This document shows positions 11,548 to 29,023 of a DNA stretch of 64,000 bases, piece after piece (positions within the stretch are counted from its first letter, which is position 1; each line of letters starts with the position of its first letter). Source of the DNA: Minisyncoccota bacterium (lineage in GTDB: Bacteria; Patescibacteriota; Minisyncoccia; UBA6257; GWB1-50-10); NCBI GenBank assembly GCA_041659005.1, contig JBAZZD010000001.1, forward strand, positions 16,366 to 80,365. Direction: 5' to 3'. A program made the translations under genes and the position numbers. Below the pieces are notes generated by a model. The model did not search any database, was not told where the DNA came from, and saw only the letters and a list, made by a program, of their open reading frames with translations.

Positions 11548-13050
11548 TTATTGCTTTGTTGTAACTTTTACTTCTGGATAATTAGATAATATCTCACTAG
11601 GAAAAGAAGCGTCGCTATTATTAAGATACTTATCAAAAAAAGATAAGATATAATCGTTAGTTATCCGTTTCATTGTATTGGCATCTATTTTACCAGTCAT
11701 GCCAATAAATTTAGTGCCTGGCATTATTATCTGATTATCATCAAAATTCATATGCTTACTACCTGAAATTGTAACCAAATAAAGCTTATTTTTGAATTGA
11801 TTAATAATAAAATCATTTACTCCAGAAAACGGTTCACTATACATTGTTATAAAAGGTTGCTGAATTTCACCACTAATCACACCGCCCCACTGAAATCCAT
11901 CCATATTAACACCAGCTTTGAAACGATTATCAATTAAACAAACCTGACCAGCCACTGCCCCCCCCATTGAATGGCCCAAAATTCCTAGACGAGATAAATC
12001 AAGTTTATTATAAAAAATATTGTCTTGTTGTAAATTAATTTTTTCTATTTCATTAATCATAAATTGAATATCATCTGTTCGCACATGCAAAACGGTATTC
12101 ATAAATACATCGCTATTCAATATTTGTTTGGCAATTTCTTTTTTTTCATTTACATCAATACTTGTCCAAAATTTTTGCCAAAGCGGCGTAGTAGTCCTTT
12201 GACCTTGTTGATAACTTTCAAGATGTTCTTTGCTAAATGGTATTATTTTACCATCGGAAGAAACTATAGATTGAGATTCATAGGGCTGATTTAAAGCAAA
12301 TACAATATAACCATGACTAGCTAACTCCTCCATCAATATCTGATAATCATCATAATTTGATAAAAAACCATTTGAAAATACAAGTACTGGATATACTGAC
12401 TGTTGATTTGAAACTGGTATATCTAAGTATGAATTAGTTTTTATCAAATTATAATGTCCAAAAATAAAGTTAGGTGTTCCTCCAGATTCAATTGAACCAA
12501 TCAGCGAGGTATCTTTTCTATAAATCATTGAATTTCCTACGGTCAAATCAGCTGGATACCATATTCTAGATATAAATTCACGATGATCAGTTGAATCTTC
12601 GGTAAATACTTCGGGGCGATTTATATCAGAAAAAGACATAAATGTCGTTCCTACTGCATAGTTACCACTTGGCTTTGGTAAGTTCACCACGGGAAATAAA
12701 TACAAAACAAAACCTGAAATTATTAAATATAATAAACCAAAAATAATAAGAATATATCTTAATATTTTAAATTTTCGTGACCCTATTTTGTTTATATGAT
12801 CTTCTTTTAATATTTCAATTTTTCTTCGTTTGATTCTAATTATACTTATTATACTAATAATGAATAAAATACTAGTTAAAATATATATTGGAATCATTTG
12901 CCACTGATATTTTACAAAAATTAGATGAATTACTATCAAGAATACCGTTAAGCCAGATAAAAAATTCATCCAATGTGATCTTCTTATTCCTGAAAATAAA
13001 AATCCAATTAAGGCTAGAAACAATAATGTGAAAATTGAAATTTTAAACAT
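11548..13050 (-). CDS. Membrane-anchored alpha/beta-hydrolase (lipase/esterase-like)
   Basis: Multi-TM N-terminus. GHSMGG nucleophile elbow (GxSxG). Confidence 0.6.
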   Translation of the reverse strand: MFKISIFTLLFLALIGFLFSGIRRSHWMNFLSGLTVFLIVIHLIFVKYQWQMIPIYILTSILFIISIISIIRIKRRKIEILKEDHINKIGSRKFKILRYILIIFGLLYLIISGFVLYLFPVVNLPKPSGNYAVGTTFMSFSDINRPEVFTEDSTDHREFISRIWYPADLTVGNSMIYRKDTSLIGSIESGGTPNFIFGHYNLIKTNSYLDIPVSNQQSVYPVLVFSNGFLSNYDDYQILMEELASHGYIVFALNQPYESQSIVSSDGKIIPFSKEHLESYQQGQRTTTPLWQKFWTSIDVNEKKEIAKQILNSDVFMNTVLHVRTDDIQFMINEIEKINLQQDNIFYNKLDLSRLGILGHSMGGAVAGQVCLIDNRFKAGVNMDGFQWGGVISGEIQQPFITMYSEPFSGVNDFIINQFKNKLYLVTISGSKHMNFDDNQIIMPGTKFIGMTGKIDANTMKRITNDYILSFFDKYLNNSDASFPSEILSNYPEVKVTTKQ

Positions 13051-13257
13051 AAATTAAATGTATTGTTTTATTATTGATAATACCACCACTTGAACAAATA
13101 AAAAACACTGATTATATCAATGTTTTTTTAAATGGCTCCGAGCTGTGCAGGAACTTAGAACCGTTATTTTAAGCGGTTGGCACTCCTACGAAATGGACGC
13201 GGCCGTTAAAATGCTCCGGGGAGAGGAACCGTTCGACTTGATTGATTAAAAAGTCAG

Positions 13258-14367
13258 TTACTTATTTTTTAAACCTTCTAAGTACTCATCCACCGCTTTG
13301 ATAAATATCTTAGGTTTTGCCAAATGAACATCATGTATGGCGTTTACTTTTACCACTTTAATATCTTTGATAATCGAACGGATTTTCTCAACATTGTTAT
13401 TATCCAACGCACCGATCAACCCCCAAGTTTTATGTCTCGACCAATATGCATGTATCAATAAAACAGGACATTTAATTTTTTTCAGTGTTTCTTCCGGATC
13501 AAAACCTTCGGTTAGTCTTCCGTCAATTGTCGCTTTTGAAAAATCGACATCATACTCACTTATAAATTTTAATCCTGCCCTTTGGTCAAACCTGGCATTA
13601 AGCAAATCATATTTTCTGGATGGACGAATTTTTTTATTAAATTCAAGGCTCATTGCTCTATAACTTGCTATAAAAGAAGGCATAAACAAAAGCTTTTCTT
13701 TACCTTCTATTGGAATCCCTTGTTTAGCGAAAAAGCCTTTTATGTCTCTTTTTGGTTTTCCAAGTGTTTCTATCGCGGTTTCAAAAAGGCGATACATGAA
13801 TTTTTCTTCTTTGATTCTTGGATACATTGAAGAAAAAAGAGGAGGGTCTTCGCTAATTGCTACAGAAACATTTTCGGGAGCATTGGCTGCCAGCCAAAGC
13901 GAAAGGATGCCTCCCGAAGAAAGTCCGGATACAATCGCGGGGTTTTTGATAACATTTTTCAAAAATTCTTTAAGGTCTTCCCCGATGATGTTATATGAAT
14001 ATTTTCCAGGAGTGTGCGTTGATTTTCCATGGCCCCTAATATCAACAACAAAAACGTGATAATTTTTTGAAAAATGAGGCATCACAAGTTCATATCCCTG
14101 CCAGAACTCCATTTGACCCGGAATAAATAACAACGAAGGACCATTACTTGGACCCTCAACATAATTTAAAGTTACTTTACCGGTATTAAATTTCTTTTCA
14201 GTAAATCCTTTGGGGATAGTTTCAACAGAAAGTCTAAACGGATTAAAAGTCTTTACAAGTAAAAAAACTATTACTCCCAGAAATATCCAGAATCCAGGCA
14301 CATGATAAACTACCATGGCTAAAATCGCCAATATCCCTAAAGCACCGTAAATGATCGCCCTGCTCAT
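13258..14367 (-). CDS. Alpha/beta-hydrolase fold protein with N-terminal TM
   Basis: VVDIRGHGKS and GLSSGG (GxSxG) motifs. Confidence 0.65.
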   Translation of the reverse strand: MSRAIIYGALGILAILAMVVYHVPGFWIFLGVIVFLLVKTFNPFRLSVETIPKGFTEKKFNTGKVTLNYVEGPSNGPSLLFIPGQMEFWQGYELVMPHFSKNYHVFVVDIRGHGKSTHTPGKYSYNIIGEDLKEFLKNVIKNPAIVSGLSSGGILSLWLAANAPENVSVAISEDPPLFSSMYPRIKEEKFMYRLFETAIETLGKPKRDIKGFFAKQGIPIEGKEKLLFMPSFIASYRAMSLEFNKKIRPSRKYDLLNARFDQRAGLKFISEYDVDFSKATIDGRLTEGFDPEETLKKIKCPVLLIHAYWSRHKTWGLIGALDNNNVEKIRSIIKDIKVVKVNAIHDVHLAKPKIFIKAVDEYLEGLKNK

Positions 14368-14417: not shown

Positions 14418-14702
14418 CTATTTCTTTTCTTTAGGCGGTCCCCACTGCCAGCGTGGTTTTTCTCCTTTCCAATATCCGAAAATGAATATAAGCGCAATCA
14501 TGAGCAGAAAGCCCAAGAGTGCCGCACCTGGTGCGTCATCGGTATCTCCAACATAAATACCGGCAATAACAATAGCTATTCCGATGATCACAATAAGCCA
14601 GCCTTGCCATTTCACCGGCACCCAGCCCCAGCCGTAGAGCTTGGCCTTGAACCAGTAACCCTGCGGATTGTCTTTTAAATATTTTATGTATTGTTTAAAC
14701 AT
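14418..14702 (-). CDS. Small 2-TM membrane protein, last gene of the defense-like operon
   Basis: 94 aa. Two hydrophobic helices. W-rich (WGWVPVKWQGW). 18-nt gap to the upstream gene. Confidence 0.4.
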   Translation of the reverse strand: MFKQYIKYLKDNPQGYWFKAKLYGWGWVPVKWQGWLIVIIGIAIVIAGIYVGDTDDAPGAALLGFLLMIALIFIFGYWKGEKPRWQWGPPKEKK

Positions 14703-14720
14703 ATATATTATCTGTTGTTT

Positions 14721-15284
14721 TTAATGCGATAGAAACTTTCCTAATAATCGCTCTTTAACCTGATAAAGCTCTTCTTTAGTAAACACATCCTGATAATCCC
14801 AAAGACGTCCATTTGAACTAAAAGCGTTCAAATAGTGCTCACAGTAAATTTTTGGATTAATAAAGATCGTGTCATCGCGTTTTTCCCAGCCTAGAGCGGA
14901 GGTGTAATCATAGCCAATATCGTAACCGCCGATACCAAGCCATTGATGAGCGAGTATATTACGCCAATTATGGATTGATTCGGCCACCTGAGAAAACCTC
15001 GTGTCAGATGTATCACCGTCAACAAATTTCTCCAAAAATAATTTATATCCCTCAGGACCGCTTTTGTTGAAAAAACCTTCGGAGATCGTAAGTGCGACCG
15101 CGTGAATACCAAGAAACATAAGTGATGTTTGATAGTGATCATCCTCGGTTGTTAAACGAATTTCGTTGTTAAAGAAATTAGCAATAGAATTCAAAAGTGT
15201 TTCTATAATTTCTACAGGAGAACCATTTTGAAAACGTTTGATTCTTTTCTCCAGTGGCTCCAAATTGTGTGCTCGATTTTCCAT
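14721..15284 (-). CDS. Hypothetical protein with HEPN-like Rx4H motif
   Basis: WRNILAHQW matches the R-x4-H-x-aromatic HEPN signature. Co-operonic with the STAND-like gene. Confidence 0.4.
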   Translation of the reverse strand: MENRAHNLEPLEKRIKRFQNGSPVEIIETLLNSIANFFNNEIRLTTEDDHYQTSLMFLGIHAVALTISEGFFNKSGPEGYKLFLEKFVDGDTSDTRFSQVAESIHNWRNILAHQWLGIGGYDIGYDYTSALGWEKRDDTIFINPKIYCEHYLNAFSSNGRLWDYQDVFTKEELYQVKERLLGKFLSH

Positions 15285-15296
15285 CGTTGTTAATAA

Positions 15297-16166
15297 TTAA
15301 GGGTTACAAAATCTTATATAAACTCTTCGTAATTTATTACATAATTCGGGAATATTTTTTTTATCGACGTCTTCTGATTTAGGTATTTTATAATCACGAT
15401 GCACCATTTTATTTACCTCGTTTTTAAATACCCTGACTAAACTACACAAATCCTCAACCAAATCTTTGAAATCATAAAAGGCAGATGAATTTGCCTTTAA
15501 ATTATCAATTAATTTATCAAGATTTAAAATTCTTCCGTTAGTTGTGTCATACCATAATTGGTGATTTTGCTGTATATATTTTCCATTTTCATCCCGTTCC
15601 CTGAAAACTATTTCAAAAACTCTATGAATTATGCATTCTATTAATTTTCTGGTTAGAATCATCACGGCTAAATAAAGTCCTTCTCTATAGCTCTCATTTA
15701 TTTCTTTTTTTATGTAATCTAAAAATGGATCATTAAAATCATACTGTAAAAAATCTAAACTATTTTGAACCCCACTTATTTCTTCTTCTAATAATTCTAT
15801 TTTGTTTTGCGAAATATCTAGTTTGAAATTGGATTTTTTTACTTCGTCTAATAATTCTGGATACCATTTTTTAATATAGGTTCCGTAATAATTCCAGTTA
15901 TCTCTTTGTGTATTTTTTATTTTTTCATCAAAAATTACTTTCTCTAAAATGGCTAAATATCTATATGAAGGAACTCTTTGCATAAACTGAGCAAAATTAT
16001 TTTGCTCAGTACTCATGAATGAATAGGCCTCAAAGTTACTATAAAAATTATCGGGTAAATTAATCCCGTTAGCTTTTAAAAAATCAACAAATCCACCATT
16101 TTCATAACAGTGTATGTATAGCTTTTCAGATAATTCCCATATTCTGTTATTAATTATTAAAGCCAT
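15297..16166 (-). CDS. Hypothetical protein (operon partner of the Mrr-NTPase gene)
   Basis: 289-aa ORF, 3-nt gap to the upstream gene. No family recognised. Confidence 0.45.
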   Translation of the reverse strand: MALIINNRIWELSEKLYIHCYENGGFVDFLKANGINLPDNFYSNFEAYSFMSTEQNNFAQFMQRVPSYRYLAILEKVIFDEKIKNTQRDNWNYYGTYIKKWYPELLDEVKKSNFKLDISQNKIELLEEEISGVQNSLDFLQYDFNDPFLDYIKKEINESYREGLYLAVMILTRKLIECIIHRVFEIVFRERDENGKYIQQNHQLWYDTTNGRILNLDKLIDNLKANSSAFYDFKDLVEDLCSLVRVFKNEVNKMVHRDYKIPKSEDVDKKNIPELCNKLRRVYIRFCNP

Positions 16167-16169
16167 ATT

Positions 16170-19100
16170 TTACGATTTTGGCGATATAAGTTCCTCACCT
16201 TCATCTAGGTGTCTTTTTATATCGTCAGCGATTGATCCAGTTAAAGAATCTACATAGTTTTTTATAACTCCTGGCTGGCACTTGGCGCTTATTTTTTCTA
16301 ATGCTTCTTTTTTATTTACTAATGCAGGTGGAGCTTGCCCTACTGTGGAACTATAACTACCACTTATCACCTGATGAGTAAAAACGTCTTTTGCTTCATC
16401 TAACACCCCTGCTTTTTCGGCCGCCATCAAAAAATTCAAAAACAAATCAATTGTATCTGCACCAAAAGAGATGCCAAAAAAAGCATTAGTAGCTATTTTC
16501 AAACTTTCTGCGTCTCCAGTCTTTATTTTGTCACCAATATAGTGCAATAAATAGTCGCCGTGTTCACTATCATGACCACCAATGCTTTTACCCAAAAATC
16601 CATCAATATCGAAAGAGAATAAAAGTTCCTCATTTCGCCAAAAATTAATTTTATCCATCAATTTTGCAAAATCATCATAGTTCTTAATTAGCTCCGTAGC
16701 CGAACGAAAACCGTCAAAGGGAATTGCATCAAATTTTTCAGCGCCTCTATTTTTAAAATATTCGCTCTGTTTTTTGAGACGATATTCAACCAATTCAATA
16801 AACTGATCCAAATCACCATTAAGTGCAAATTTTAATAGATCGTCTGTGTGATAATCTACCGAAGGGATATCTTTTATTATTTCAAATAATTTTTTACGAA
16901 TTTTATCTAAATCACCGCTTGGTAAATTCCAATTTACGGCATTGTGAACTAGAAAATCGAACATATCTAATACGTTGCTGTTGACTACACCACTTAAAGA
17001 CTGCTCAAGAATATTCACAACCTGGTTTTTTTCTGTTTGATCCCTGTCCTTAAAAATAAAATAAGAACGATGAAGAATAAGATTCTTAAGATAATCATCT
17101 GCTTTCTCAATAATCTGAGATATCCACGGCATAAATTCTGCCGTAGAAACATTATGTCGTATTATAAGGTCTAAAAGATTGTCTACAGCTTGGCGTTGAA
17201 GATTATTTAAATCTCCTAAGATTCGGCTAGCATATTTCATTATGTATTGTTTATCCCTATCGGAGGCAACTCTATAAATTCCGAGATGGAATCTATTAGG
17301 AACACTACTCAACAAATTTTCATCATCTACGATCTCAATAAATGATTGGTTATTGAATTTAGACCAAGTCTCAACTAAAGGAATAGTCTGCCATTGAGTA
17401 ATTCCCTTCACTTCATTCTCAAGTTCATATAAGTATTTAATAATCTCGGCTCTGCTTTTATATTTATTAGATAGCCTTTTTACTACCTCATCCAACTCTT
17501 CCTGTGGAAAATCATGAAGTCGAAAGTGATTATGAACAAGCCAAGACCATCTATCGCTCTCGGGGGCTCCAGACTCTATTTTTTTAAAATCGGAAATAAT
17601 CAAATCATGAGCCACAAAATATCGAAAAATAATGTATTCCATTGATCTCGGAAAATTTCTAAGTATGCCAGCAATTTTATCGCTCAAATCTAAATAAATA
17701 TTATTATTAGCCCAATATCTAACAAGAACGTCTTCGATAGAACTAAGCACCTCATGAGAACTTGTTTCGCTAATTAATTTCTCTAACCATTCAATAGCTT
17801 TTGTTTTATCGGATAGAATCCTCTTCCAAAAATCATCGCTTGTGGAGGTTGCCTCGTGACCGATGTCATCAACAATTTCCACGCCTATTTTTTTAATCTT
17901 GTCATTGGAGTGAAGAACCAACTTTTTCAGGACATCCATTCCTACATCTCTAAACTCATCCACTGGTTTTTTGTATATACCTTCATAACGCAGAATTCTT
18001 CTACCAAAAGTTATTTGGTTACCGTAACTTTCCCTATGTTCATGCGATCCAGAAAGGGATTCCAAGACACCATCGCTAGCAAGCCTTGCTTCGAGTTCGG
18101 TACAATTTCCTTTGCTAACCCAATCCAATAATTCCTTTAGTGATTGAGTAGCTGAAGCTATATTTACTTCAATGGGTGATATCGCTTGTTTTATAAGACT
18201 AGCGGGCTTGTAATTATCGTAAGTACCCTTAAGGTCTTTCTGGGCAAGATAAAGAATCAATTTTAATATTGCTTTTTCAAATCCAGGTACATGCAAAACA
18301 TGGTAAATGACTGGCCCATAAGTATCCCGATTTAGTCCATATGAATTCTGTGTATTCGATGAATTTACATAGGCATAAACCAAACTGATTGCCTCTTCAG
18401 GGGCTAAAAAAGCAATAGAAGCAGCGAGTTCTAATATTTTAGATTTAGATGAATCGGATGTCTCAGATGTTTCATTAATCCATTTTTGGAAAAGCTCCTT
18501 CACGGCTTCGTTCGCCGAATTCGTATCCTTATGTCTAGATGCAGCTGCCAAATTTGCTGTGAGTTGTTTAGGGTAGATAGATAACCAATTCTCAAACATT
18601 TCGTTCGCTAAATCTTTTCCATTTTCTTTATCTAATTCTACAGAAAGATAGATATCTCCTTTCATGTCAGGATTAAATCTTATCGAGGCGCCAACAACAC
18701 GAAGAATTTTTGCCTCAATAAGTTTATTCAGAGCTTCGTTTATTAAATCTACTTTTAATTCCAAAACAGTTGCCAACTTATCAAGCACATTATTTCCACG
18801 TTTTTCTTTTGAAAATGGGACAATAATAGATAGCTCTCTTAAAAAAGCCTTTGAGTTGCGTTCATCTAATACACCCTTAAGTGCGTTTACGGTTTCTTGG
18901 TCTAAATTATCTTTAATCTGCTTTTTAACTTGACTCGGGTTTAAGTCGCCACCCTTAATAAGTTTTCCTGTCGTGATTATTAAAAACAAATTTCCATTTA
19001 GTTCTTTTACGATTCTTTCTGGATGATTAATCTTTTTTGAATCAGCTGCTAGATTTAAAATTTCTATAAGTTCCTTCTCGGAAAGATGAGGTAACTCAAG

Positions 19101-20027
19101 TAAATTATAATTATCTACCCGCTGCGAATCCGCTAAATTCTTAACAATTTCTTTCCCAGAACTGCGACAAGACAAGACAACCTTTAACTTTCCAGGAGAA
19201 AATGTCTTAGTGTGAGCAATTAATTTTCTTGTATCGTCTAAATATCTTTCAGCGTCATCTAGAAATATCAAGGAATTCTTTTCGTGATCTAACTCATTGA
19301 TAGCTTCGTTAATATCTCTAATCCCAGGTCGACAAAACCATGTTTGAATACCTGGCCATAAAGAATCGCCATTTTTTCCAGATTCTACAATAAAATGTGT
19401 TTTTCCATAGCCACCTCCAGAATGAACAATAAGAAGATTAGATGTATTTTTTTGTATAAATTCCTTTAAAATATTTACTGATTCTTCTCGGCCGACAAAA
19501 ACTCCTTTAAGAAGCGGCTCTGATTCGGCGAATACATGAGCTGGAACGAATGTTGGTTCTTGGGGATCGCCAAAGTAGTTATGCCTTAATAGCGGATATT
19601 GAGTTGTTTTACTTTCTAAGTTGGCTCGCGGCCAAATAAATAACTGATCGACGAATTTTTTATTTTCGTTTAGCTTCTCAAGTTTACCTATATGATCGTC
19701 GGTGCCTATTCTCAAATCAGCATTTGTCGCAACCAGTAAAAAATTCACTTTATTCTTCTTTGCCTTTTCTAACTCCTTTTTAATCTCTCTCTGTAATTGT
19801 TTATAGGCTGCCTCAAGATTATGTTTGGTCCATTTCGCTTGGAAATTCCAAACACCCTTAAGACCCATATATGGTCCGTCATAACGCCCATCCCAACCGC
19901 CATCTGCTCCAATTTCCGGATTGCTTGAGAGAAAAGCGGGGTGGTTAATTTCTAATGCAAAAAGATCGTTTACTAAACGTTGGAAGTCTCTATCATTATT
20001 GATTTTATTCCAATCTAGGTTTTTCAT
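16170..20027 (-). CDS. Large defense-like protein: N-terminal Mrr-like restriction endonuclease domain + P-loop (STAND-like) NTPase + long helical-repeat C-terminus (Avs-like architecture)
   Basis: N-terminus GADGGWDGRYDG..FQAKW (Mrr_cat-like PD-(D/E)xK). Walker A LIVHSGGGYGKTHF. Walker B LIFLDDAERY. About 950 aa of helical repeats. Start overlaps the res stop (ATGA). Confidence 0.6.
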   Translation of the reverse strand: MKNLDWNKINNDRDFQRLVNDLFALEINHPAFLSSNPEIGADGGWDGRYDGPYMGLKGVWNFQAKWTKHNLEAAYKQLQREIKKELEKAKKNKVNFLLVATNADLRIGTDDHIGKLEKLNENKKFVDQLFIWPRANLESKTTQYPLLRHNYFGDPQEPTFVPAHVFAESEPLLKGVFVGREESVNILKEFIQKNTSNLLIVHSGGGYGKTHFIVESGKNGDSLWPGIQTWFCRPGIRDINEAINELDHEKNSLIFLDDAERYLDDTRKLIAHTKTFSPGKLKVVLSCRSSGKEIVKNLADSQRVDNYNLLELPHLSEKELIEILNLAADSKKINHPERIVKELNGNLFLIITTGKLIKGGDLNPSQVKKQIKDNLDQETVNALKGVLDERNSKAFLRELSIIVPFSKEKRGNNVLDKLATVLELKVDLINEALNKLIEAKILRVVGASIRFNPDMKGDIYLSVELDKENGKDLANEMFENWLSIYPKQLTANLAAASRHKDTNSANEAVKELFQKWINETSETSDSSKSKILELAASIAFLAPEEAISLVYAYVNSSNTQNSYGLNRDTYGPVIYHVLHVPGFEKAILKLILYLAQKDLKGTYDNYKPASLIKQAISPIEVNIASATQSLKELLDWVSKGNCTELEARLASDGVLESLSGSHEHRESYGNQITFGRRILRYEGIYKKPVDEFRDVGMDVLKKLVLHSNDKIKKIGVEIVDDIGHEATSTSDDFWKRILSDKTKAIEWLEKLISETSSHEVLSSIEDVLVRYWANNNIYLDLSDKIAGILRNFPRSMEYIIFRYFVAHDLIISDFKKIESGAPESDRWSWLVHNHFRLHDFPQEELDEVVKRLSNKYKSRAEIIKYLYELENEVKGITQWQTIPLVETWSKFNNQSFIEIVDDENLLSSVPNRFHLGIYRVASDRDKQYIMKYASRILGDLNNLQRQAVDNLLDLIIRHNVSTAEFMPWISQIIEKADDYLKNLILHRSYFIFKDRDQTEKNQVVNILEQSLSGVVNSNVLDMFDFLVHNAVNWNLPSGDLDKIRKKLFEIIKDIPSVDYHTDDLLKFALNGDLDQFIELVEYRLKKQSEYFKNRGAEKFDAIPFDGFRSATELIKNYDDFAKLMDKINFWRNEELLFSFDIDGFLGKSIGGHDSEHGDYLLHYIGDKIKTGDAESLKIATNAFFGISFGADTIDLFLNFLMAAEKAGVLDEAKDVFTHQVISGSYSSTVGQAPPALVNKKEALEKISAKCQPGVIKNYVDSLTGSIADDIKRHLDEGEELISPKS

Positions 20028-22387
20028 AATTCAAGTGCCATCCATTCTTTCCAATCATCCTGTTCGCATTTCTCCCAATCATAAATAGCCTTGTCGCTGA
20101 TGTGCCAGGCACGATTGCGTTCAATGACAATACCGCCGAAAAGCTTCTTGTTTTTCTGATCGGCAATGTATTTCTGCAAAGCTTCGGCTTTAGCTTTGGT
20201 GTAGGTTATACCGTCCCGATCACCGGAGTCTTTGACTTCAAACAAACCGATTCGACCGTCGGCAAACTTCACTAAATAGTCCGGGTAGAACGTATAGATG
20301 CCTCCGGCATATTCGTACTTTATGCCAAAGTAATCCTGCTTATTCTCTCCATTTTTCCACCACCAATCAATCTTAGAGGCGTTGTCGTTCAAGAATGACT
20401 CAAACTCACGTTCTGGCTTTGAGCGATCCACATTGAGATAACACGGATCATAAGCATACTTTTTCGCTTTTACGATTTCATCGGTGTACTCGTTATAAAA
20501 CTGCTCAGGCTGAAGCTCAAAAGGATATCGCTGTTCGCTTTCCTCGATACGCTCTCGGACTTCCTGCTCTTTAACAGCCTTATAGTTATCAATCGCCGTA
20601 GCCAGTACGTGCTCAAAGTAGCCACGATTTTTATCGTGCAAGAAAACCTTCTGCGCCATGAGCATATTTTCCTCACCCCAGCTCTTTGAGCCGAGCACCC
20701 CCTGAAACCAGAGATAGATGGCCGCTTTAACCGACGGGACCGAACGCTTCACGTTCTTGAAAGGTCCGAGATTGTTTTTAATGGTCTGCTCAAAAAAGAC
20801 CATGAGCTCGTCGGCCGCCACCTGAAGCTTGGCAAAACCTTCGGCACCGAGCTTACCCTCAAGCTCATCAAAACTTTTTATATCCAAATGCGTATCGGCG
20901 ATAATTTCTTGCTGATACTTCTTGATATTGAGATCAACGCCCTTGCTCTCAACTTTCTTGGCGTTCTCCGCTGGTTTATTTTTGCGTGATACGCCAAAGT
21001 ATTTATTGGCTGTTTCTTCAAAGACATCGTGGAAGCTGGATGTGACATCGCCATAATCCGCTCGAGCTTTGTAGTACGACTCTATCTTGAGCGATTTGTA
21101 ATCCTTTGTGCGTCCAGCTCGCAAATGCTTGATGATGTTCGGATTGTATTCTTCCTTTTTAACTTCGATTGATTTGAGATTGGTATAGATATAACCACGA
21201 TTGAGCATTTCGTGTCCGTAGTGTCGCTGTTCCGGCATACGCAAAATACGGCCAACAGTTTGGATTTCAAAGACGATATTATGTGTCTCTCGAAACTTCA
21301 CAAGAATGTGTGCTCGAGGACAATCCCAGCCGGTATCAATGGCTTGCTTGAAAATAAGAAATTCAATCTCGTTATCCGGCTCGGCGATCCAATCAATAAG
21401 CTCTGACTTCTGTTCGGCCAGCCAGATAGCCAGCTTGCCGTTGCCGTGCCCATCTTTACGTTCAACGATACTCTTACCAGCCAGAAATTTCTTCACTGCT
21501 TCGATCTTTTGGTCACCAGCTTCTGCGGTAGGAATCTGTACCAGAACCAAAGGATTGATATGTGATCCTTCTTTTTCAAATACCTTTTTAAGTTCTAGAC
21601 GCTTACGATAGGCGGCCTCGAGTACAGCTGATTGTGAGTCATCTTCGGAAGCGGCGATTTTCTCTATATCCTCGTTGATGATGATTTCTTTCTTAATCAT
21701 ACCTTCGTCAATCACATCTTTCGGCTCGACTATGACATAGCCAGCACCGCCTCGAGCCAGTTCCTGGGTAAAACCGAGCTCCTGCTGTGGCCGACGGGGA
21801 GTAGCGGACATTTCGATCACAATATCTGCACCGATAAGGTCGCGGAGCTCATTTGCCCGGGCTGTGTCAGCACTTACGTGGCTCTCATCAATAATAAGAA
21901 TGATTTTACGTTGCTCTCTGGTCTTCTCGAGCACATCCCGAAAATTTAACTTCTCGCCGTCTTTCATGACCAAGTTTTTCCAATCTCCGGATTCACGTTC
22001 CTTGCTTCGAAGTTTTTCCCAGTTGGCGACCACGACTTCGTTTTGCACGATCCGTTCACGCCCACCGCTAAAGGCATTCTCGACAGATGTAACTCGAGGG
22101 AAACCAGCGAATACCTTTTCGAGCGAATGTTTGCTCTGTAAATGAAGCTCACCCTTACCGATACTCATCCAAACAAAGCAAAAATCTTCTTTGGGGAGTT
22201 CTTTGATAATACCCTCGATGTACTTAGCCATCATGATGGTCTTACCCGAACCAGTGGGAGATTGAAAGACGCACACTTCGCCCGGGCCGTCATAACCCAA
22301 AAGCTTGACCGTTGTTTCGATCAGCTGATTAACGGCTTTTTCTTGATAAGGTTTAAGATCAATATTCATAAATTTGTTTATATACAT
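20024..22387 (-). CDS. res: Type III restriction enzyme Res subunit (SF2 helicase + endonuclease)
   Basis: Walker A FQSPTGSGKT and IIDESH (DEAH-like) box. Overlaps mod by 29 nt. Confidence 0.75.
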   Translation of the reverse strand: MYINKFMNIDLKPYQEKAVNQLIETTVKLLGYDGPGEVCVFQSPTGSGKTIMMAKYIEGIIKELPKEDFCFVWMSIGKGELHLQSKHSLEKVFAGFPRVTSVENAFSGGRERIVQNEVVVANWEKLRSKERESGDWKNLVMKDGEKLNFRDVLEKTREQRKIILIIDESHVSADTARANELRDLIGADIVIEMSATPRRPQQELGFTQELARGGAGYVIVEPKDVIDEGMIKKEIIINEDIEKIAASEDDSQSAVLEAAYRKRLELKKVFEKEGSHINPLVLVQIPTAEAGDQKIEAVKKFLAGKSIVERKDGHGNGKLAIWLAEQKSELIDWIAEPDNEIEFLIFKQAIDTGWDCPRAHILVKFRETHNIVFEIQTVGRILRMPEQRHYGHEMLNRGYIYTNLKSIEVKKEEYNPNIIKHLRAGRTKDYKSLKIESYYKARADYGDVTSSFHDVFEETANKYFGVSRKNKPAENAKKVESKGVDLNIKKYQQEIIADTHLDIKSFDELEGKLGAEGFAKLQVAADELMVFFEQTIKNNLGPFKNVKRSVPSVKAAIYLWFQGVLGSKSWGEENMLMAQKVFLHDKNRGYFEHVLATAIDNYKAVKEQEVRERIEESEQRYPFELQPEQFYNEYTDEIVKAKKYAYDPCYLNVDRSKPEREFESFLNDNASKIDWWWKNGENKQDYFGIKYEYAGGIYTFYPDYLVKFADGRIGLFEVKDSGDRDGITYTKAKAEALQKYIADQKNKKLFGGIVIERNRAWHISDKAIYDWEKCEQDDWKEWMALEL

Positions 22388-24089
22388 CTAATATCTTTTG
22401 AGGAATGGGTTCGAGCGTAACACCATGCCAGTTAGCGAACTCTGTTTTTGAAAGACCTGTGGCATCGAGCGTGAAGCAGTAAAGTATTTTCTCACCATCA
22501 ATTTCCTTTAGCTCTTTTTTCAAGGCGGGCAATGATTTACGGTCCAAAGAATAGTAAACAGCCAGCGTTTTATTGCCTTGTTGGAATATACGATAGTGAT
22601 CGGTCTTTTTTACTTCATCAAACACGCCTTCTCGCAAACAAAGCATCTCGGTGCATTCCTGTGTAATCCGTATCTTAAAGTCATCGCCGTTGGCGTTCTT
22701 TTTTACGAATTTTGTCTTGAAATATTTAAGAGAGCCACCCGTACCCGGCACTTTTACATTTTCAGAATTTTTATATCCTCCAGATACATTTTTCAGTCGA
22801 GGATAGCAAACTTCCGTACAAATATTGCCCTCGTCATTAGTACAAAGTATAAATTCTCTTTTTCCACCGTCCTGATTAAGTTCAAGAACTGCGTGACCCG
22901 TAGTACCTGAACCGGCAAAAAAATCGAGAACAATCCCGTCTTTTTTGATGGAGAGATTGATACATTTTTTAATTAGCTCAACTGATTTAGGGAAGTCAAA
23001 AAGATGCTGATGAAACATACTTTTCAAAACCTCTTTCCCGTTTTCGTTGTTTATGTTTTTATCTAACCATAAAGCTTTTTCTTTGGTTGTAGCTGTTTCT
23101 CCATTCTGCTTTATAAGACGATCTTTTCTATAGACTCGCCAAGCACCTGTTGAAACCTTTTTACCGACAAGATCAGTTATTTCCTTGGCGACTTTTTCTT
23201 TACCCCATGTCCAGCAACCGTCTTCGTTTTTAGAGTTGCGTGGGTAGACCTCAACATAGCCTTTCTTGTTAGTTAAAGAAACTACACCATTTTTTAAATC
23301 AACAAAAAGTGGGTAATAAAGATTTGGTCGGTTCTTTCGATTAAAGACAGGGTTACGATTTCTTAATTCCAAGAGACGATATTTCCCTTTCTCGTCCTCT
23401 TTATCATATTCGGCCAGCATTTCCTCACCTTTAGTAGGTTCTATAATTTGTGCAATGTTAAAATCCTTGGCGAAAACTAAAATATATTCAAAAGTTTTTG
23501 CGAAATGTTTATCAAGCGTTCTGCCTCGCGGATTTAGTTGGACAACAAGTTGAGCAATAAAGTTTTTCTCTCCAAAAATATCATCACATAATAGTTTAAG
23601 GTGCGAGACTTCATTGTCGTCTATGCTAATGAAAATAACCCCGGAGTCCTTAAGTAGGTTTTTTGCGAGCTGAATTCTCTTTGCCATAAAAGAGAGCCAT
23701 TTACTGTGCCGATATGCATCTTCTCTGTCGACGTAATTGTCATTATATTTAAAGTCCTTGTTGCCCGTGTTATACGGCGGATCAATATAGATCACATCAA
23801 CCTTACCTTGATGCGTAAAATTCAAAACTGAGAGAGCATGATAATTATCTCCCTCGATCAAAATATTAACCGGCCTGGACGGGTCCTTGTCAGTAATTTC
23901 CTTAGAACCGATTTCTTTTAGTACCGGTAAAGCATTCTCTGCATCTTTCTCAAATTGTTCTTTGACTTTTTCCTCATCCCAAATAAGCCCGTACTTCTTT
24001 CGGGACTCCAACTTCTCAACAATTTTGACTAACTCTTCTTTGCTGAGTTGGGAGTAGTCTTTTCCATTTTTGGCGATTTCCTTTTGCAT
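22359..24089 (-). CDS. mod: Type III R-M DNA methyltransferase Mod subunit (N6A/N4C beta-class)
   Basis: Motif IV IYIDPPYNTGN and motif I VLDFFAGSGTTGHAV. Confidence 0.8.
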   Translation of the reverse strand: MQKEIAKNGKDYSQLSKEELVKIVEKLESRKKYGLIWDEEKVKEQFEKDAENALPVLKEIGSKEITDKDPSRPVNILIEGDNYHALSVLNFTHQGKVDVIYIDPPYNTGNKDFKYNDNYVDREDAYRHSKWLSFMAKRIQLAKNLLKDSGVIFISIDDNEVSHLKLLCDDIFGEKNFIAQLVVQLNPRGRTLDKHFAKTFEYILVFAKDFNIAQIIEPTKGEEMLAEYDKEDEKGKYRLLELRNRNPVFNRKNRPNLYYPLFVDLKNGVVSLTNKKGYVEVYPRNSKNEDGCWTWGKEKVAKEITDLVGKKVSTGAWRVYRKDRLIKQNGETATTKEKALWLDKNINNENGKEVLKSMFHQHLFDFPKSVELIKKCINLSIKKDGIVLDFFAGSGTTGHAVLELNQDGGKREFILCTNDEGNICTEVCYPRLKNVSGGYKNSENVKVPGTGGSLKYFKTKFVKKNANGDDFKIRITQECTEMLCLREGVFDEVKKTDHYRIFQQGNKTLAVYYSLDRKSLPALKKELKEIDGEKILYCFTLDATGLSKTEFANWHGVTLEPIPQKILDVYKQIYEY

Positions 24090-24095
24090 AAAATT

Positions 24096-24287
24096 TTATT
24101 TCTTCTTACGTTTAACATTGCTCGTGTCCTCAAGAAAAGCATTTAGGTCCGACTGCTTGATCCGCCAGACTCCGAGCTTGGATGCTTTAAGCCGGCCGGC
24201 TTCGATGTACCGTGTGACCGTGCGTGTATGCACTCGTAAAATTTTAGCGACTTCCTCAATCGTAAAAAGTTTTTCGATTTCGTTCAT
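24096..24287 (-). CDS. Excisionase-family/MerR-like HTH DNA-binding protein
   Basis: 63 aa. LFTIEEVAKILRVHTRTVTRYIEAGRLKASKLG matches the Xis-family HTH. Immediately upstream of mod. Confidence 0.7.
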   Translation of the reverse strand: MNEIEKLFTIEEVAKILRVHTRTVTRYIEAGRLKASKLGVWRIKQSDLNAFLEDTSNVKRKKK

Positions 24288-24400
24288 AAAAATATATTAG
24301 TCGTTGATACCATTTTACCGCTTCTGCTTTTCGTTGTCAAAAACGCCGTCTTTTGTCATAATGAGCTTAACAACAAAAAGAGCACACTGTTTTAACAATA

Positions 24401-24470
24401 AGGATATCACTATATCACTCTGTTGATATAGTAAGTGGCTTTACTATCTCAGTTGATTGATATAGTAAAT
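24401..24470. repeat. Iteron/operator-like cluster of short direct and inverted repeats
   Basis: GATATCACTATATCAC. Two copies of TTGATATAGTAA and its inverse TTACTATCTCA within 70 bp. Confidence 0.4.
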
Positions 24471-24618
24471 TTAGTGAATGCCAATGCAACAAAAGTGTAT
24501 TACTGTCGAAAAGTGAACTGGAAAGGACTTTAAACACCCTTTCCAGTTAAAAAACGAAGCTGAACTCCATTAACTTCTTGTCAGCTTTTGTCAGATCAGC
24601 TGTCCACAGAAATGGGTG

Positions 24619-24648
24619 TTGACGGTCCCTAGAGAAATCCGCTAAAAT
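24619..24648 (+). promoter_or_regulatory. Sigma70-like promoter candidate
   Basis: TTGACG (24619-24624), 18-bp spacer, TAAAAT (24643-24648). Confidence 0.35.
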
Positions 24649-24654
24649 ATACAT

Positions 24655-24790
24655 ATCAGAGTTAGTTGGTCTGACGGCGACTGAATTCTCAGTCTAAACG
24701 TGACGGGACTACGACTACTGTTATCAGCACTGCCATTTGGTGTGTGCATTTGATGACAAGAGTCGTGGTCCCGTTTTTTGTTTTCCAGCT
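24655..24790 (+). ncRNA. Candidate small RNA (promoter to strong intrinsic terminator, no ORF)
   Basis: Internal hairpin GACTGAattcTCAGTC. Terminal 14-bp stem ACGGGACTACGACT/AGTCGTGGTCCCGT (24703-24774) followed by TTTTTTGTTTT. Confidence 0.3.
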
Positions 24791-24895
24791 CGCTCTGCTG
24801 ATAAATAATTTCCCTCTGAGGCTAAGGTGCCTCGATTAGACCGACGAATTTGATTAGACGGATAAAGGCTAGCTCCCGGCAGGGGCCAGCCTTTT

Positions 24896-25096
24896 ATGTT
24901 GCCCCAAGAAGCAATCCAAGAATTTAAAACACTGTACGAAAAACGCTACGGCGTAAAGCTCTCCGATGAGGAGGCTGCTTTGCGCGCGAATAATCTTTTC
25001 AAACTTTACAAGATCACCTACATGGGTGAGCCAAACATCGACGACTTCAAAGAAAAAGTAGTGAAAAGCCATGACCTCAACACCAACCACAATTAG
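24896..25096 (+). CDS. Hypothetical small protein
   Basis: 66-aa ORF in the GC-rich segment. No family recognised. Confidence 0.3.
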   Translation: MLPQEAIQEFKTLYEKRYGVKLSDEEAALRANNLFKLYKITYMGEPNIDDFKEKVVKSHDLNTNHN

Positions 25097-25379
25097 CGAA
25101 ATACAGTTCTACCCGGTTAAACCCCAGGACGGCCTCCTTGGGTTTGTTTCGTTTGTCCTGGACAGCAAATTCTGGATGGGATCGGTGGCTGTTTTCTCCA
25201 GGCGCGAGGGCGGATACCGGCTTGTGTATCCAACACGCAAAGTTGCCGGACAAAACATTAATATTTTTCATCCAATTAACCACGAAGTCGGCATCCTGGT
25301 CGAAAAAGCCGTCAGTGAAAAAGTAGCTGAAATATTTAGTGAATCATATGAACAAACCGAACCGGACAACACGTGGTAA
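25071..25379 (+). CDS. SpoVG-family protein
   Basis: ISEIQFYPV..DGLLGFVSFVLD..F.....V....EGGYRLVYPTRK....INIFHPIN..VG..VEKAV aligns with the conserved SpoVG core (..HPIN..). Confidence 0.6.
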   Translation: MTSTPTTISEIQFYPVKPQDGLLGFVSFVLDSKFWMGSVAVFSRREGGYRLVYPTRKVAGQNINIFHPINHEVGILVEKAVSEKVAEIFSESYEQTEPDNTW

Positions 25380-25779
25380 AAGCTTAAATTTCTTTCCGGC
25401 TCCTCACCTGGTCTTCGATGACGACCGGCTGAAGAATTCGCTCACGCACGCCGAGCGGGATTTTCTCATGGTTATCTGCCACCTCTCAAACCGCTATGCA
25501 AATGCAGCCGGCTGGTTTTGGCATACCGATCGATTGTTTACCACGCGCGAAGACAAGGAGCGCGGGTTCGCTTCGTTTGGGTTTAGCAGATCAACATGCC
25601 GCCGGGTGAGAAAGAAGCTTGCCGGTCTTGGACTGATAGAAACCAGACCGGGAACATCGGAACGTGGCCGGTGGGCCGGAACTTTGTATCGCCTTAACCC
25701 CAGACTTCTCCAGCCTGCCGGGGTTCATAATGAAGCACGGTCAGGTGTCTTAGAGAATCATGGCCCGGGTCCACCATGA
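25339..25779 (+). CDS. Hypothetical protein with winged-helix-like C-terminal region
   Basis: CRRVRKKLAGLGLIETR resembles a wHTH recognition helix/wing. GC-rich codon usage. True start uncertain (overlaps SpoVG-like ORF). Confidence 0.35.
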   Translation: MNHMNKPNRTTRGKSLNFFPAPHLVFDDDRLKNSLTHAERDFLMVICHLSNRYANAAGWFWHTDRLFTTREDKERGFASFGFSRSTCRRVRKKLAGLGLIETRPGTSERGRWAGTLYRLNPRLLQPAGVHNEARSGVLENHGPGPP

Positions 25780-26063
25780 AGCACTTAGTAATAAAGATTG
25801 AGTAAGAAAGAAACAATAAGAGAGCTTAAATAAAGCGAGATGGCTCGTCAAAAATTAAAAAATAGGGGTTGGGCAAAGCTTGGGTGAAACTTGGGCAGAT
25901 TTTCGAGAAGATAACCAAATAAAAGGCGAACAAAATCGGTACAAGAATAGATACCCAACCTGTAAATAAAGGCGTAAAATGTAAGTAATTAAGTGTTTGA
26001 CTTCTTTCGACCTTAGGACCATGTTGTGCTTAGGTCGAGAAAATAATTAATGAAAACAATCAT

Positions 26064-26927
26064 ATGACAAACAAAGCCAAAATAACCACCGTAATCGCCC
26101 TTGTAGCGGTCTTTGGTGCAGGATTCGGGGTTTATTACCTTCTAGGAAACAAAGCACCGCGCGGAGGCACGAATACAGACGTAGCCTCAATTACGACATT
26201 CGAGCAATGCTCTGAGGCCGGTTACCCGATCGTTAAGCATTATCCAGATCAGTGCAAAACTCCGGACGGTAGAATTTTTGTAAACGACAATCCTCCAAGC
26301 CAAACAGAGCTTGTGAAAGCCGAGCAAACAATTCGAACGTTCATGGGAGAGCTGAATCTGGAGTTGCAATACACCGGACAAAATAATCATCCCACGAATT
26401 TTGCCGTCTTAAGCAACGTTAAACAGAACGACGGCGGATTTACGGCCGACAATCCCGAAGAATGGGACCGGCCGGTCTACATCTTCCAGCAAACAGATTA
26501 CATCAACGACCGCTGCGAAGTTTATCAATATCAGGTAACGCAAAAAACGAATCAGGTCGTGGAAATCGGAATTGTCTATCCGATAGAACGCAACGCTACC
26601 ACGCCAGGTAATTGCCCTGGTAACGGATCGCTGGAAACTCCGCTGAAGACCAAAGCTGAAATCGAACAAATTGCCTTCGCTTATTTCGGCAGAGACCCGG
26701 AACACACGAAATTCATGCTTCGCTCCGACATCCAGCTTAAATACATCTCAAGCAAACCAGGCGCAGCAAACCCGGCTGCCAATGAATGGCAATGGGAAGA
26801 CAAAAACGCCTCACTGCCGGACGGACTGACCGGCGATCCGTGGCAGCACCCGATTGCCAGAATCATAATATCAAGTGGCGGTAAACTGATTTACTATCTG
26901 AACACCACCGACTTATTCCAAAACTAA
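26064..26927 (+). CDS. Secreted/membrane-anchored hypothetical protein
   Basis: N-terminal TM/signal (ITTVIALVAVFGAGFGVYYLL). GC-rich. No family recognised. Confidence 0.5.
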   Translation: MTNKAKITTVIALVAVFGAGFGVYYLLGNKAPRGGTNTDVASITTFEQCSEAGYPIVKHYPDQCKTPDGRIFVNDNPPSQTELVKAEQTIRTFMGELNLELQYTGQNNHPTNFAVLSNVKQNDGGFTADNPEEWDRPVYIFQQTDYINDRCEVYQYQVTQKTNQVVEIGIVYPIERNATTPGNCPGNGSLETPLKTKAEIEQIAFAYFGRDPEHTKFMLRSDIQLKYISSKPGAANPAANEWQWEDKNASLPDGLTGDPWQHPIARIIISSGGKLIYYLNTTDLFQN

Positions 26928-26928
26928 T

Positions 26929-28512: not shown

Positions 28513-28572
28513 GACTCGAACCTACAACCATCGCGTTAACAGCGCGCCGCTCAACCATTGAGCTACCGGGGA
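28498..28572 (-). tRNA. tRNA-Asn (GTT)
   Basis: Hand-folded cloverleaf. Acceptor TCCCCGG/CCGGGGA. D-arm GCTC-AATGGTT-GAGC. Anticodon loop CTGTTAA. T-arm GTAGG-TTCGAGT-CCTAC. Encoded CCA. Confidence 0.8.
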
Positions 28573-28642
28573 ATATTGTTTCCTATAAGGAACATAAGCA
28601 ATTGTAACAAAAAAGCGCCCAATGTAAAGTTCATTGTGACGC

Positions 28643-29023
28643 TTAAAAAACTCTTATAATCTCTAAAATTTGACCCTTTACCGATTCCTTCATATCCTCC
28701 TCTTCTTCGGAAACTACAACTATCGGAATTAATGGATGACTCTTCCTATGCCCCTCAACTAGATGGAGCCCAGTAACCTGAATGGGAATGACAACTCTCT
28801 CTAATCGCATAACTACGATATAAAAATCAATTCCGTCTATAATGTCTGCATATCCAAATTTCGGAGTCTTTATAAACTCAAGTATTTGCTTTTCTTTTTT
28901 CATCTTTGCGAGAACATCGAAAACTAAACCCTCTCGCCTATCACCTCGTTCTGCTGATCCTGGAAGATCATTCATCGATCGTTTCAGTATTCGCTCACGG
29001 AGCGACTCAAAACTGGAATCCAT
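28643..29023 (-). CDS. Hypothetical protein
   Basis: 126-aa ORF between two tRNA loci. No family recognised. Confidence 0.4.
   Translation of the reverse strand: MDSSFESLRERILKRSMNDLPGSAERGDRREGLVFDVLAKMKKEKQILEFIKTPKFGYADIIDGIDFYIVVMRLERVVIPIQVTGLHLVEGHRKSHPLIPIVVVSEEEEDMKESVKGQILEIIRVF

Follow-up and report, generated by a model that had tools for sequence, protein, structure and literature searches.

This study concerns a tight run of seven genes in the genome of a Minisyncoccota bacterium (GenBank assembly GCA_041659005.1), in which a small DNA-binding protein and a Type III restriction–modification (R-M) pair are followed directly by a 1285-residue nuclease-STAND protein, here called BIG, and by three small genes. 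The window is the whole stretch of 64,000 nucleotides (nt) that was analysed, positions 16,366 to 80,365 of contig JBAZZD010000001.1, and coordinates refer to it unless a locus with an L number is named. A first-pass annotation, made from the letters alone, had taken the run for a single dedicated defence system.

The gene cluster and its Type III R-M pair

All seven open reading frames (ORFs) lie on the minus strand within 14418–24287. In reading order, followed by a promoter-like site, they are:

24096–24287, minus strand: HTH_17/excisionase-family DNA-binding protein, 63 amino acids (aa), at the head of the cluster; Pfam HTH_17, E = 1.1e-16
22359–24089, minus strand: Type III R-M Mod methyltransferase, 576 aa; PADLOC MTase_III 1.8e-91, Pfam N6_N4_Mtase 1.9e-38
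20024–22387, minus strand: Type III R-M Res, 787 aa, superfamily 2 (SF2) helicase with a C-terminal PD…EVK nuclease motif; Pfam ResIII 4.7e-19, PADLOC REase_III 2.6e-17
16170–20027, minus strand: BIG, 1285 aa, identical in sequence to MFA5870300.1 (locus tag WC842_00180)
15297–16166, minus strand: 289-aa protein with a HEPN four-helix fold, a frequent BIG partner
14721–15284, minus strand: 187-aa protein with an invariant W-R-N-x-x-A-H (here WRNILAHQW), tail gene of many Patescibacteria defence operons
14418–14702, minus strand: 94-aa protein with two hydrophobic segments, no family match above cut-off
24312–24340, minus strand: sigma-70-like promoter match, TTGACA-17-TAAAAT, 11/12 positions (consensus scan), 25 nt upstream of the HTH start

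Re-reading the ORFs reproduces the coordinates, strand, overlaps and gaps of the first-pass annotation. Neighbouring genes share 8 nt at the HTH–Mod junction, 29 nt at Mod–Res and 4 nt (ATGA) at Res–BIG; the gaps after BIG, the 289-aa gene and the 187-aa gene are 3, 12 and 18 nt, respectively. The ATGA overlap arises because BIG starts with ATGAAA, so that an in-frame upstream ORF reaching BIG stops on that TGA; the same 4-nt overlap is seen with an unrelated Type IIG gene in locus L089. There is no intergenic space ahead of BIG, and no convincing internal promoter or terminator was found from the HTH gene through the 94-aa gene. The site at 24312–24340 is the best promoter-like site in the region, in a phylum whose promoters are poorly known; promoter-like sites overall were not above shuffled expectation in the consensus scan. 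Judged by their spacing, the seven genes are probably co-transcribed as one compact operon. Between three near relatives, the ratio of non-synonymous to synonymous substitution (dN/dS) is 0.06–0.10 for BIG, 0.03–0.23 for the 289-aa gene and 0.06 for the 187-aa gene; these are therefore real constrained genes and not chance ORFs.

The excisionase-type helix-turn-helix (HTH) protein at the operon head is as first described, with a TIGR01764 score of 44.3 bits (cut-off 28.8). It also resembles PADLOC mad1 (1.7e-10), but the NCBIfam MAD1 score is 28 bits against a cut-off of 80. A MADS system (methylation-associated defence, mad1 with mad2–mad8) was considered and rejected: the HTH protein alone resembles mad1, below the cut-off, and no other mad model is among the top matches listed for the remaining six genes.

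By sequence, Mod and Res are assigned to Type III R-M as an autonomous gene pair, and the pair appears complete, with PADLOC matches for both subunits and the PD…EVK motif in Res. Type III enzymes cleave in an ATP-dependent reaction for which two unmethylated sites in inverse orientation are needed. Against the Protein Data Bank (PDB), Mod matches Mbo45V (3.5e-66) and EcoP15I Mod (3.3e-33). The C-terminal motif of Res, YPDYLV…LFEVKD, is intact when read directly in the translation; the nuclease region has a weak HMM match (E 0.0038). A homologous methyltransferase (586 aa) and helicase (740 aa) stand alone as a pair on the Staphylococcus aureus plasmid pWBG746, which shows that Res, at 787 aa, has its full length and that such pairs exist without a STAND gene. 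The window pair resembles EcoP15I-like systems in the order of its overlapping genes, mod ahead of res, in the match of Mod to EcoP15I Mod, and in a Res with SF2 helicase motifs and a C-terminal PD…ExK. It differs from them in that Res belongs to a short subfamily (∼740–790 aa), without a sequence match to any solved structure at E≤0.01, and in that an HTH_17 gene overlaps the start of mod.

The nuclease-STAND protein BIG

Three regions can be distinguished along BIG:

19518–20027, minus strand: residues 1–170, PD-(D/E)xK (Mrr/FokI-like) nuclease domain, from the predicted structure
19158–19490, minus strand: residues ∼180–290, P-loop STAND NTPase core, with Walker A GGGYGKT at 204–210 and Walker B LDD at 256–258
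16173–18680, minus strand: residues ∼450–1285, large C-terminal region, presumed sensor by comparison with the Avs architecture

The motifs quoted in the first-pass annotation (GADGGWDGRYDG…FQAKW, GGGYGKT and LIFLDDAERY in BIG, WRNILAHQW in the 187-aa protein) are all present. Structure prediction gives the N-terminal domain a confident restriction-endonuclease fold, and the structure that it matches best is the EcAvs4 nuclease domain. Both the fold of the BIG domain and its D…QxK motif recur in Mrr, MspJI and AspBHI-type modification-dependent enzymes. The earlier label 'Mrr-like' thus stands for fold and motif and falls for sequence: 14 N-domains gave no Mrr-family match in Pfam even at E≤10, which leaves the domain outside Mrr_cat and Mrr_cat_2. 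A profile search of the PDB gave nothing meaningful, and only structure prediction resolved the domain.

The central NTPase matches Pfam PF25199, nSTAND_NTPase5, at E 2.2e-5 and 24.8 bits, under the 34-bit cut-off. The same family is matched in 18/18 diverse full-length BIG homologues, with a best E of 5e-13 and a weak NB-ARC match besides, and the P-loop NTPase first read from the motifs is accordingly of STAND type. Residues G205, G208, K209, D257, D258, R261 and R288 are invariant in the family. The C-terminal ∼830 residues are conserved along their whole length and contain no Pfam domain or Pfam repeats. The PADLOC and Pfam searches proposed with the first-pass annotation point to a STAND NTPase rather than an SF2 motor; BIG has no PADLOC match at E≤0.01, AVAST models included, and the family is absent from PADLOC-DB v2.0.0. 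Searched with a full-length BIG profile, the PDB returned no Avs chain at E≤1, only marginal DnaA/DnaC P-loop matches. A literature search for 'nSTAND5' found only unrelated ecology papers; a 2026 STAND census counts 589 clades (PMC13581612).

With Avs4 (EcAvs4, PDB 8DGF) BIG shares an N-terminal nuclease effector, which in Avs4 is Mrr-like, and a central STAND P-loop NTPase; in Avs proteins of this architecture a large C-terminal sensor, made of repeats or helices, binds a phage protein. It differs in having no sequence kinship detectable by the PDB profile (E≤1) or the PADLOC AVAST models, in an NTPase that falls in Pfam nSTAND5, in its hosts and in an often adjacent gene for a HEPN-fold partner. 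The sequence comparisons place BIG outside the named Avs families (Avs1–5 models, Avs4 among them). By architecture and the fold of one domain, BIG is most likely an Avs4-like STAND of a new, uncharacterised family.

The family is rare: among 1.84 billion representatives, clustered at 50% identity, 335 clusters match at E≤1e-3 and 103 at E≤1e-30. There are 82 near-full-length homologues, every one labelled hypothetical. Hosts include Patescibacteria, Acidobacteriota, KSB1 and one Gammaproteobacteria metagenome-assembled genome, and, among the archaea, several lineages such as methanogens, Theionarchaea, Bathyarchaeia and Halobacteria. A search of IMG/VR viral contigs found no copy of BIG or of the 187-aa gene. 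In distant relatives the NTPase and C-terminal region are retained and joined to a different N-terminal domain, either hydrophobic and possibly membrane-spanning (a methanogen clade) or SMEK_N (P0082). Such swapping of N-terminal effectors is typical of antiviral STANDs.

The nuclease fold also bears on a different account, in which BIG is a Type IV-like, NTP-dependent and modification-dependent restriction enzyme, directed against phages with modified DNA that escape the neighbouring R-M system (compare the GmrSD-like TgvAB and BrxU, which have this part inside Type I and BREX loci). The N-domain would suit such a role, with the fold and D…QxK motif of Mrr, MspJI and AspBHI-type enzymes; BIG adjoins R-M genes repeatedly, and complementary pairing of this kind has a precedent (PMC11411939). 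The rest of the protein speaks for something else. The structure that the nuclease matches best is an Avs4 effector domain and no Type IV enzyme; the NTPase belongs with the STANDs (nSTAND5, weakly NB-ARC) and not with McrB, GmrS or an SF2 motor; the ∼830-residue C-terminal region and the N-terminal swapping are hallmarks of STAND sensors; and no modified-base-binding domain (SRA, YTH or winged-helix Mrr_N) was detected in BIG. A Type IV-like enzyme is accordingly quite unlikely.

Several clades of the family have recurrent neighbours of their own. Relatives in Methanoculleus/Methanomicrobiales (L015 11330–12721; L016, L019, L065, L068, L070, L071) have the hydrophobic N-terminal domain instead of the nuclease; behind BIG all seven loci have a conserved 89-aa gene, and five of them a ∼372-aa gene after that, neither with a Pfam family. 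In the clade of ∼56% identity, the gene immediately ahead of BIG (L001 9431–9988, L024 430–987, L091 9441–9998) belongs to a 185-aa family, 71% identical from locus to locus; the family has no Pfam or PADLOC match and may be an alternative small partner. The clade of ∼30% identity has a ∼285-aa protein with a weak PIN match (E 8e-4) directly upstream of BIG in 11 loci (L034 934–1791, L037, L040, L041, L043, L044, L045, L052, L058, L066 and L078), which is another clade-specific BIG partner. At L091 a bAvd gene and a reverse-transcriptase gene, a pair of the diversity-generating-retroelement type, lie at 19989–21413, ∼6 kb downstream of BIG; such retroelements are reported to diversify STAND-linked sensors in some bacteria (10.1101/2023.09.22.558884).

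Exchange of modules, R-M neighbours and the carrier element

The history of the operon can be read from two loci with close BIG homologues, L098 and L004. At L098 BIG is 95% identical (aa), and the backbone beside the operon is 86.5% identical (nt, blastn) over window positions 24409–28529. There the HTH_17 gene (67% aa) is followed by a DpnII-type Type II R-M system in place of mod and res (PADLOC MTase_II 2e-99, REase_II 8.5e-96, MTase_II 2.6e-85), after which the cluster continues as in the window, with 91% identity (nt) over BIG and the 289-aa gene, 83% (aa) for the 187-aa product and 88% (aa) for the 94-aa product. At L004 BIG is 94% identical (aa) and the shared block covers window positions 14749–20029 only, starting at the ATG of BIG; upstream there is an HTH pseudogene with in-frame stops, and no R-M system. 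The R-M slot between HTH and BIG is exchanged among relatives: Type III, Type II or none.

Homologues of the window's Mod or Res are missing from all 88 BIG loci. The 187-aa gene also closes operons of CBASS, Hachiman and other systems, and the 94-aa peptide recurs only at L098. The dedicated mod–res–STAND–HEPN–transmembrane system proposed at first therefore does not recur as a unit in synteny, and the mosaic arrangement lends no support to one new system made up of all these genes. The 187-aa, BIG and 289-aa genes and mod–res-like pairs each occur apart, and are separable modules.

Sequence identity within the block shared with L004 changes along its length, from 83–91% at the 5' end of BIG to 95–99% from mid-BIG through the 289-aa gene and 70–83% in the 187-aa gene, with none beyond. 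Synonymous divergence (dS) is 0.1–0.46 for BIG and the 289-aa gene and saturated for the 187-aa gene against its L004 and L098 copies; the 187-aa gene therefore has a separate history. GC content agrees with a cassette history over 20000–29000: it is 0.41–0.49 in Res, HTH and the recombinase backbone, 0.38 in Mod and 0.27–0.36 in BIG and the 289-aa gene, against 0.37 for the whole window. An rRNA source for the GC rise at 25–29 kb was rejected, the Rfam matches being two tRNAs only.

The three small genes behind BIG have no match above curated cut-offs in PADLOC, NCBIfam or Pfam. The 289-aa protein, at first listed as an unknown, has the HEPN four-helix fold; the family has no conserved R-x4-6-H, and its invariant residues are R173, K174, E177, R182, N252, H256, D258 and Y259. 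BIG is found without the 289-aa gene and the gene without BIG, and the protein is proposed to be a facultative BIG partner, acting as a second effector or regulator. A lone 42%-identical homologue (L099 9001–9873), far from any copy of BIG or its relatives, has FG-GAP/CARDB, Laminin_G_3 and Por_Secre_tail genes as neighbours.

The 187-aa protein belongs to a family of 332 homologues (58–84% identity), whose named members are nearly all Patescibacteria. All of 50 homologues have W107-R108-N109-x-x-A112-H113, an Rx4-6H motif with a polar residue after the arginine. The earlier assignment as HEPN-like survives for this motif; the family profile has no credible match in the PDB or Pfam, and 1/50 members matches a HepT-like family, at E 0.037. 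An hhalign probability of 1.5% shows that the 187-aa and 289-aa families are unrelated. By its motif, the 187-aa protein may be called HEPN-like.

Homologues of the 187-aa gene are the last gene, after gaps of 3–12 nt, of at least six unrelated types of defence operon, that of BIG included. The other homologues are:

L092 6001–6564: after CBASS (CD-NTase and Cap15)
L093 6001–6561: after an SF2-helicase operon
L094 7001–7561: after a 536-aa unknown, with a homologous serine recombinase nearby
L095 7001–7564: after Hachiman HamA/HamB, with a homologous recombinase nearby
L096 7001–7567: after an SMEK_N/MC8/DUF2326 operon

Across eight loci there is no conserved junction motif before or after the 187-aa gene. 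Terminator-like hairpin sequences lie behind it at L092 and L093. A ParB_N–N6_N4 methyltransferase gene (∼440 aa) lies a few kb away at L092 (1924–3246), at the end of L094 and at L095 (10501–11826), and L093 has at 1–802 an N6_N4 methyltransferase of 426 aa, cut by the locus end and without a ParB_N match; the methyltransferase gene may be a second conserved landmark of islands with the 187-aa gene. The 94-aa protein does have the two hydrophobic stretches of the predicted two-transmembrane peptide; its gene is absent from L004 and the other loci with the 187-aa gene.

The association between BIG and R-M genes is wider than this one lineage. An R-M gene lies within 5 kb in 14/39 informative BIG loci (distinct loci whose context reaches 4 kb or more to one side), contiguous and co-oriented in ∼10 of these. 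BIG abuts five R-M classes, Type I, II, IIG, ISP-like and III; the association suspected from the window is thus generic, and its restriction to Type III is not upheld. As raw counts, these figures make enrichment beside R-M suggestive. Apart from the window and L098, the arrangements are:

L089, L001: Type IIG and HKD-Snf2 directly upstream of BIG (4-nt overlap in L089)
L091, L037, L058: Type I upstream of BIG
L029: BIG embedded, hsdM-Fic-AbiJ-BIG-hsdS-HEPN-hsdR
L026: BIG-hsdS-hsdR
L057: ISP-like enzyme upstream of BIG

Besides Type I, II, IIG and ISP-like R-M, the neighbours of BIG include GmrSD, AbiJ, Fic, HEPN, SIR2, Cas1, NucS-like and Schlafen/AlbA genes. An Hma system with BIG as HmaC was rejected: there is no PADLOC HmaC match, and the upstream gene in L089 and L001 encodes a full-length Type IIG enzyme. 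Copies of BIG without an adjacent R-M system occur at L004, L090, L008, L010 and L017, and the archaeal copies at L013 and L028 lie among housekeeping genes.

One account of this adjacency couples BIG functionally, alone or together with the 289-aa protein, to the preceding R-M system: BIG would sense anti-restriction proteins or the failure of restriction, in the manner of PrrC/EcoprrI or PARIS, and trigger nuclease-mediated abortive infection, as a two-layer unit not specific to Type III. Co-orientation directly downstream of systems of five classes, embedding in L029, the place before hsdS-hsdR in L026, the proximity counts, and the lack of any intergenic space in the window and L089 would all be expected of such a unit, as would an element lineage in which the R-M genes between HTH and BIG are replaced and not lost. 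The lineage also offers the counterexample, since at L004 BIG is intact and under purifying selection with the R-M genes gone; BIG likewise stands among housekeeping genes in L013 and L028, and R-M neighbours are lacking at L090, L008, L010 and L017. It is implausible that BIG makes specific physical contact with R-M architectures of five unrelated kinds. R-M genes are the commonest defence genes, and independent defences embedded in R-M loci are documented (10.1101/2024.01.29.577857; PMC11411939). Functional coupling of this kind is therefore unlikely.

Among the closest known systems, the PrrC gene lies in the EcoprrI locus, and PrrC interacts physically with the R-M complex, which silences it. 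BIG resembles a PrrC-type guard in its placement in R-M operons (appended in the window, L098, L089 and L091, embedded in L029) and differs from one in lacking an obligate R-M association, being intact without adjacent R-M in L004, L090, L008, L013 and L028. Independent defences embedded in R-M, BREX and Hma loci were described as 'guilt by embedding' by Payne et al. 2024 (bioRxiv 10.1101/2024.01.29.577857), and TgvAB lies inside a Type I R-M system (PMC11411939). BIG is like these in its place within or immediately behind an R-M operon, with which it shares its orientation and probably a transcript (compare L029), and unlike them in being a STAND family outside PADLOC-DB v2.0.0 and in standing beside five R-M classes and not one.

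The operon is carried beside the following features:

28498–28572, minus strand: tRNA-Asn (GTT), edge of the element (ARAGORN and Rfam)
26929–28512, plus strand: large serine recombinase, 527 aa; Pfam Resolvase 1.1e-19, Zn_ribbon_recom, SHOCT
25071–26927, plus strand: backbone genes, comprising a SpoVG-like gene (25071–25379, weak SpoVG match), a 146-aa gene (25339–25779) and a 287-aa gene (26064–26927)
24409–24468, no strand: two 26-nt direct repeats, each with a TATATCA…TGATATA palindrome (repeat search)
13133–13234, no strand: ∼100-nt GC-rich conserved segment, 88% identical to L098 15969–16070 and 78% to L004 15335–15408

Backbone homology to L098 stops at 28529, inside the tRNA-Asn gene, and at L004 a tRNA-Asn gene lies on the same side of BIG. 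The recombinase is 95% identical (aa) to that of L098, and the three backbone products are 82–89% identical to their L098 counterparts in conserved order; recombinase homologues of ∼45% identity lie upstream, divergently oriented, in L094, L095 and L008. The best explanation is that window positions 13.1–28.5 kb are an integrative element inserted at tRNA-Asn in a Candidatus Paceibacterota genome. The repeats at 24409–24468 lie upstream of the HTH promoter-like site, exactly at the start of the L098 backbone homology, and are possibly an operator for the HTH protein or a cassette boundary; other repeats in 13–29 kb look like chance. At the far end, the L004 copy of the ∼100-nt segment comes directly after the 187-aa gene, and the surrounding genes differ among the three relatives; the segment may mark the right-hand end of the element or be left over from a target gene, and it has no Rfam match above threshold, nor has the rest of 12.9–14.8 kb. 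No duplicated 3' segment of tRNA-Asn that could serve as an att repeat was found. Two T-arm-like copies (GTTCGAACCTCC…; 28328–28348 and 28431–28451) lie in the 3' part of the recombinase gene just before tRNA-Asn, and may be relics of earlier tRNA integrations. Behind the operon, on the same strand, two alpha/beta-hydrolase genes occupy 11548–14367, one of 369 aa and one of 500 aa that is PAF-acetylhydrolase-like; the ∼100-nt piece bounds a segment that includes the 369-aa gene, and GC is 0.27–0.29 around 12–13 kb.

In having a conserved backbone that flanks cargo whose defence genes swap between close relatives, the element recalls the P2/P4 hotspots (PMC9122126). It differs from them in its carrier, a large-serine-recombinase element in Patescibacteria and not a phage or satellite, and in a cargo bounded on one side by the conserved 187-aa RNxxAH gene.

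Since BIG travels on serine-recombinase elements, it could also be asked whether BIG and its small partners serve the element itself (addiction, exclusion or partition) or the cell's housekeeping, with the R-M neighbourhood incidental. The rarity of the family, its wholly uncharacterised state and the archaeal copies among housekeeping genes would be compatible with this. The tripartite nuclease-STAND architecture, the effector swapping and the dense defence neighbourhoods fit antiviral STANDs instead, and BIG and the 187-aa gene are not in IMG/VR viral contigs; a role outside defence is very improbable.

A proposed stack of defence modules in an ultra-small bacterium

The favoured explanation, held as reasonably probable, is a co-transcribed cargo operon on a serine-recombinase element that stacks separable defence modules. 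Behind the HTH_17 regulator, the Mod/Res pair would restrict incoming DNA that is not methylated. BIG would work in the manner of Avs4: its C-terminal ∼830 residues would recognise a phage component, the nSTAND5-type NTPase would oligomerise in an ATP-dependent step, and the N-terminal PD-(D/E)xK nuclease domains gathered in this way would degrade DNA and abort infection. The 187-aa RNxxAH tail gene, common to many Patescibacteria defence operons, has its own evolutionary history, with the 94-aa peptide placed after it in this element lineage. R-M and BIG would be juxtaposed because layered defences are packed and exchanged as cassettes.

Several observations weigh against this explanation. 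The Avs analogy is drawn from the architecture of BIG and the fold of one domain, with a C-terminal sensor that is presumed, for a protein that matches no PADLOC model and whose profile finds no Avs protein in the PDB by sequence. Co-transcription is read from gene spacing, and the promoter is a consensus match. The 289-aa protein does not have the canonical catalytic HEPN motif, and the HEPN assignment of the 187-aa protein is by motif, with no significant Pfam or PDB sequence match and no kinship to the 289-aa family. Finally, BIG abuts five R-M classes, twice with zero intergenic space, which exceeds the needs of simple co-location; this adjacency may reflect functional coupling.

A more ambitious combination would make BIG and its HEPN-fold partner a restriction companion behind any R-M system, firing when restriction is evaded or inhibited, and the 187-aa protein a universal accessory RNase or regulator at the 3' end of unrelated Patescibacteria defence operons. 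Taken together, the two would amount to a cassette grammar of immunity in ultra-small bacteria, made up of a regulator, an exchangeable R-M system, an abortive sensor and a common tail gene; this combination is unlikely. If the R-M adjacency or the tail position of the 187-aa gene did reflect function rather than packing, it would be new biology.

The exchange of the R-M slot is a clean natural example of the assembly of layered defences within one element lineage. The Avs systems tested by experiment are mainly enterobacterial, and BIG would extend Avs4-like nuclease-STAND immunity to Patescibacteria, to other little-studied phyla and to archaea.

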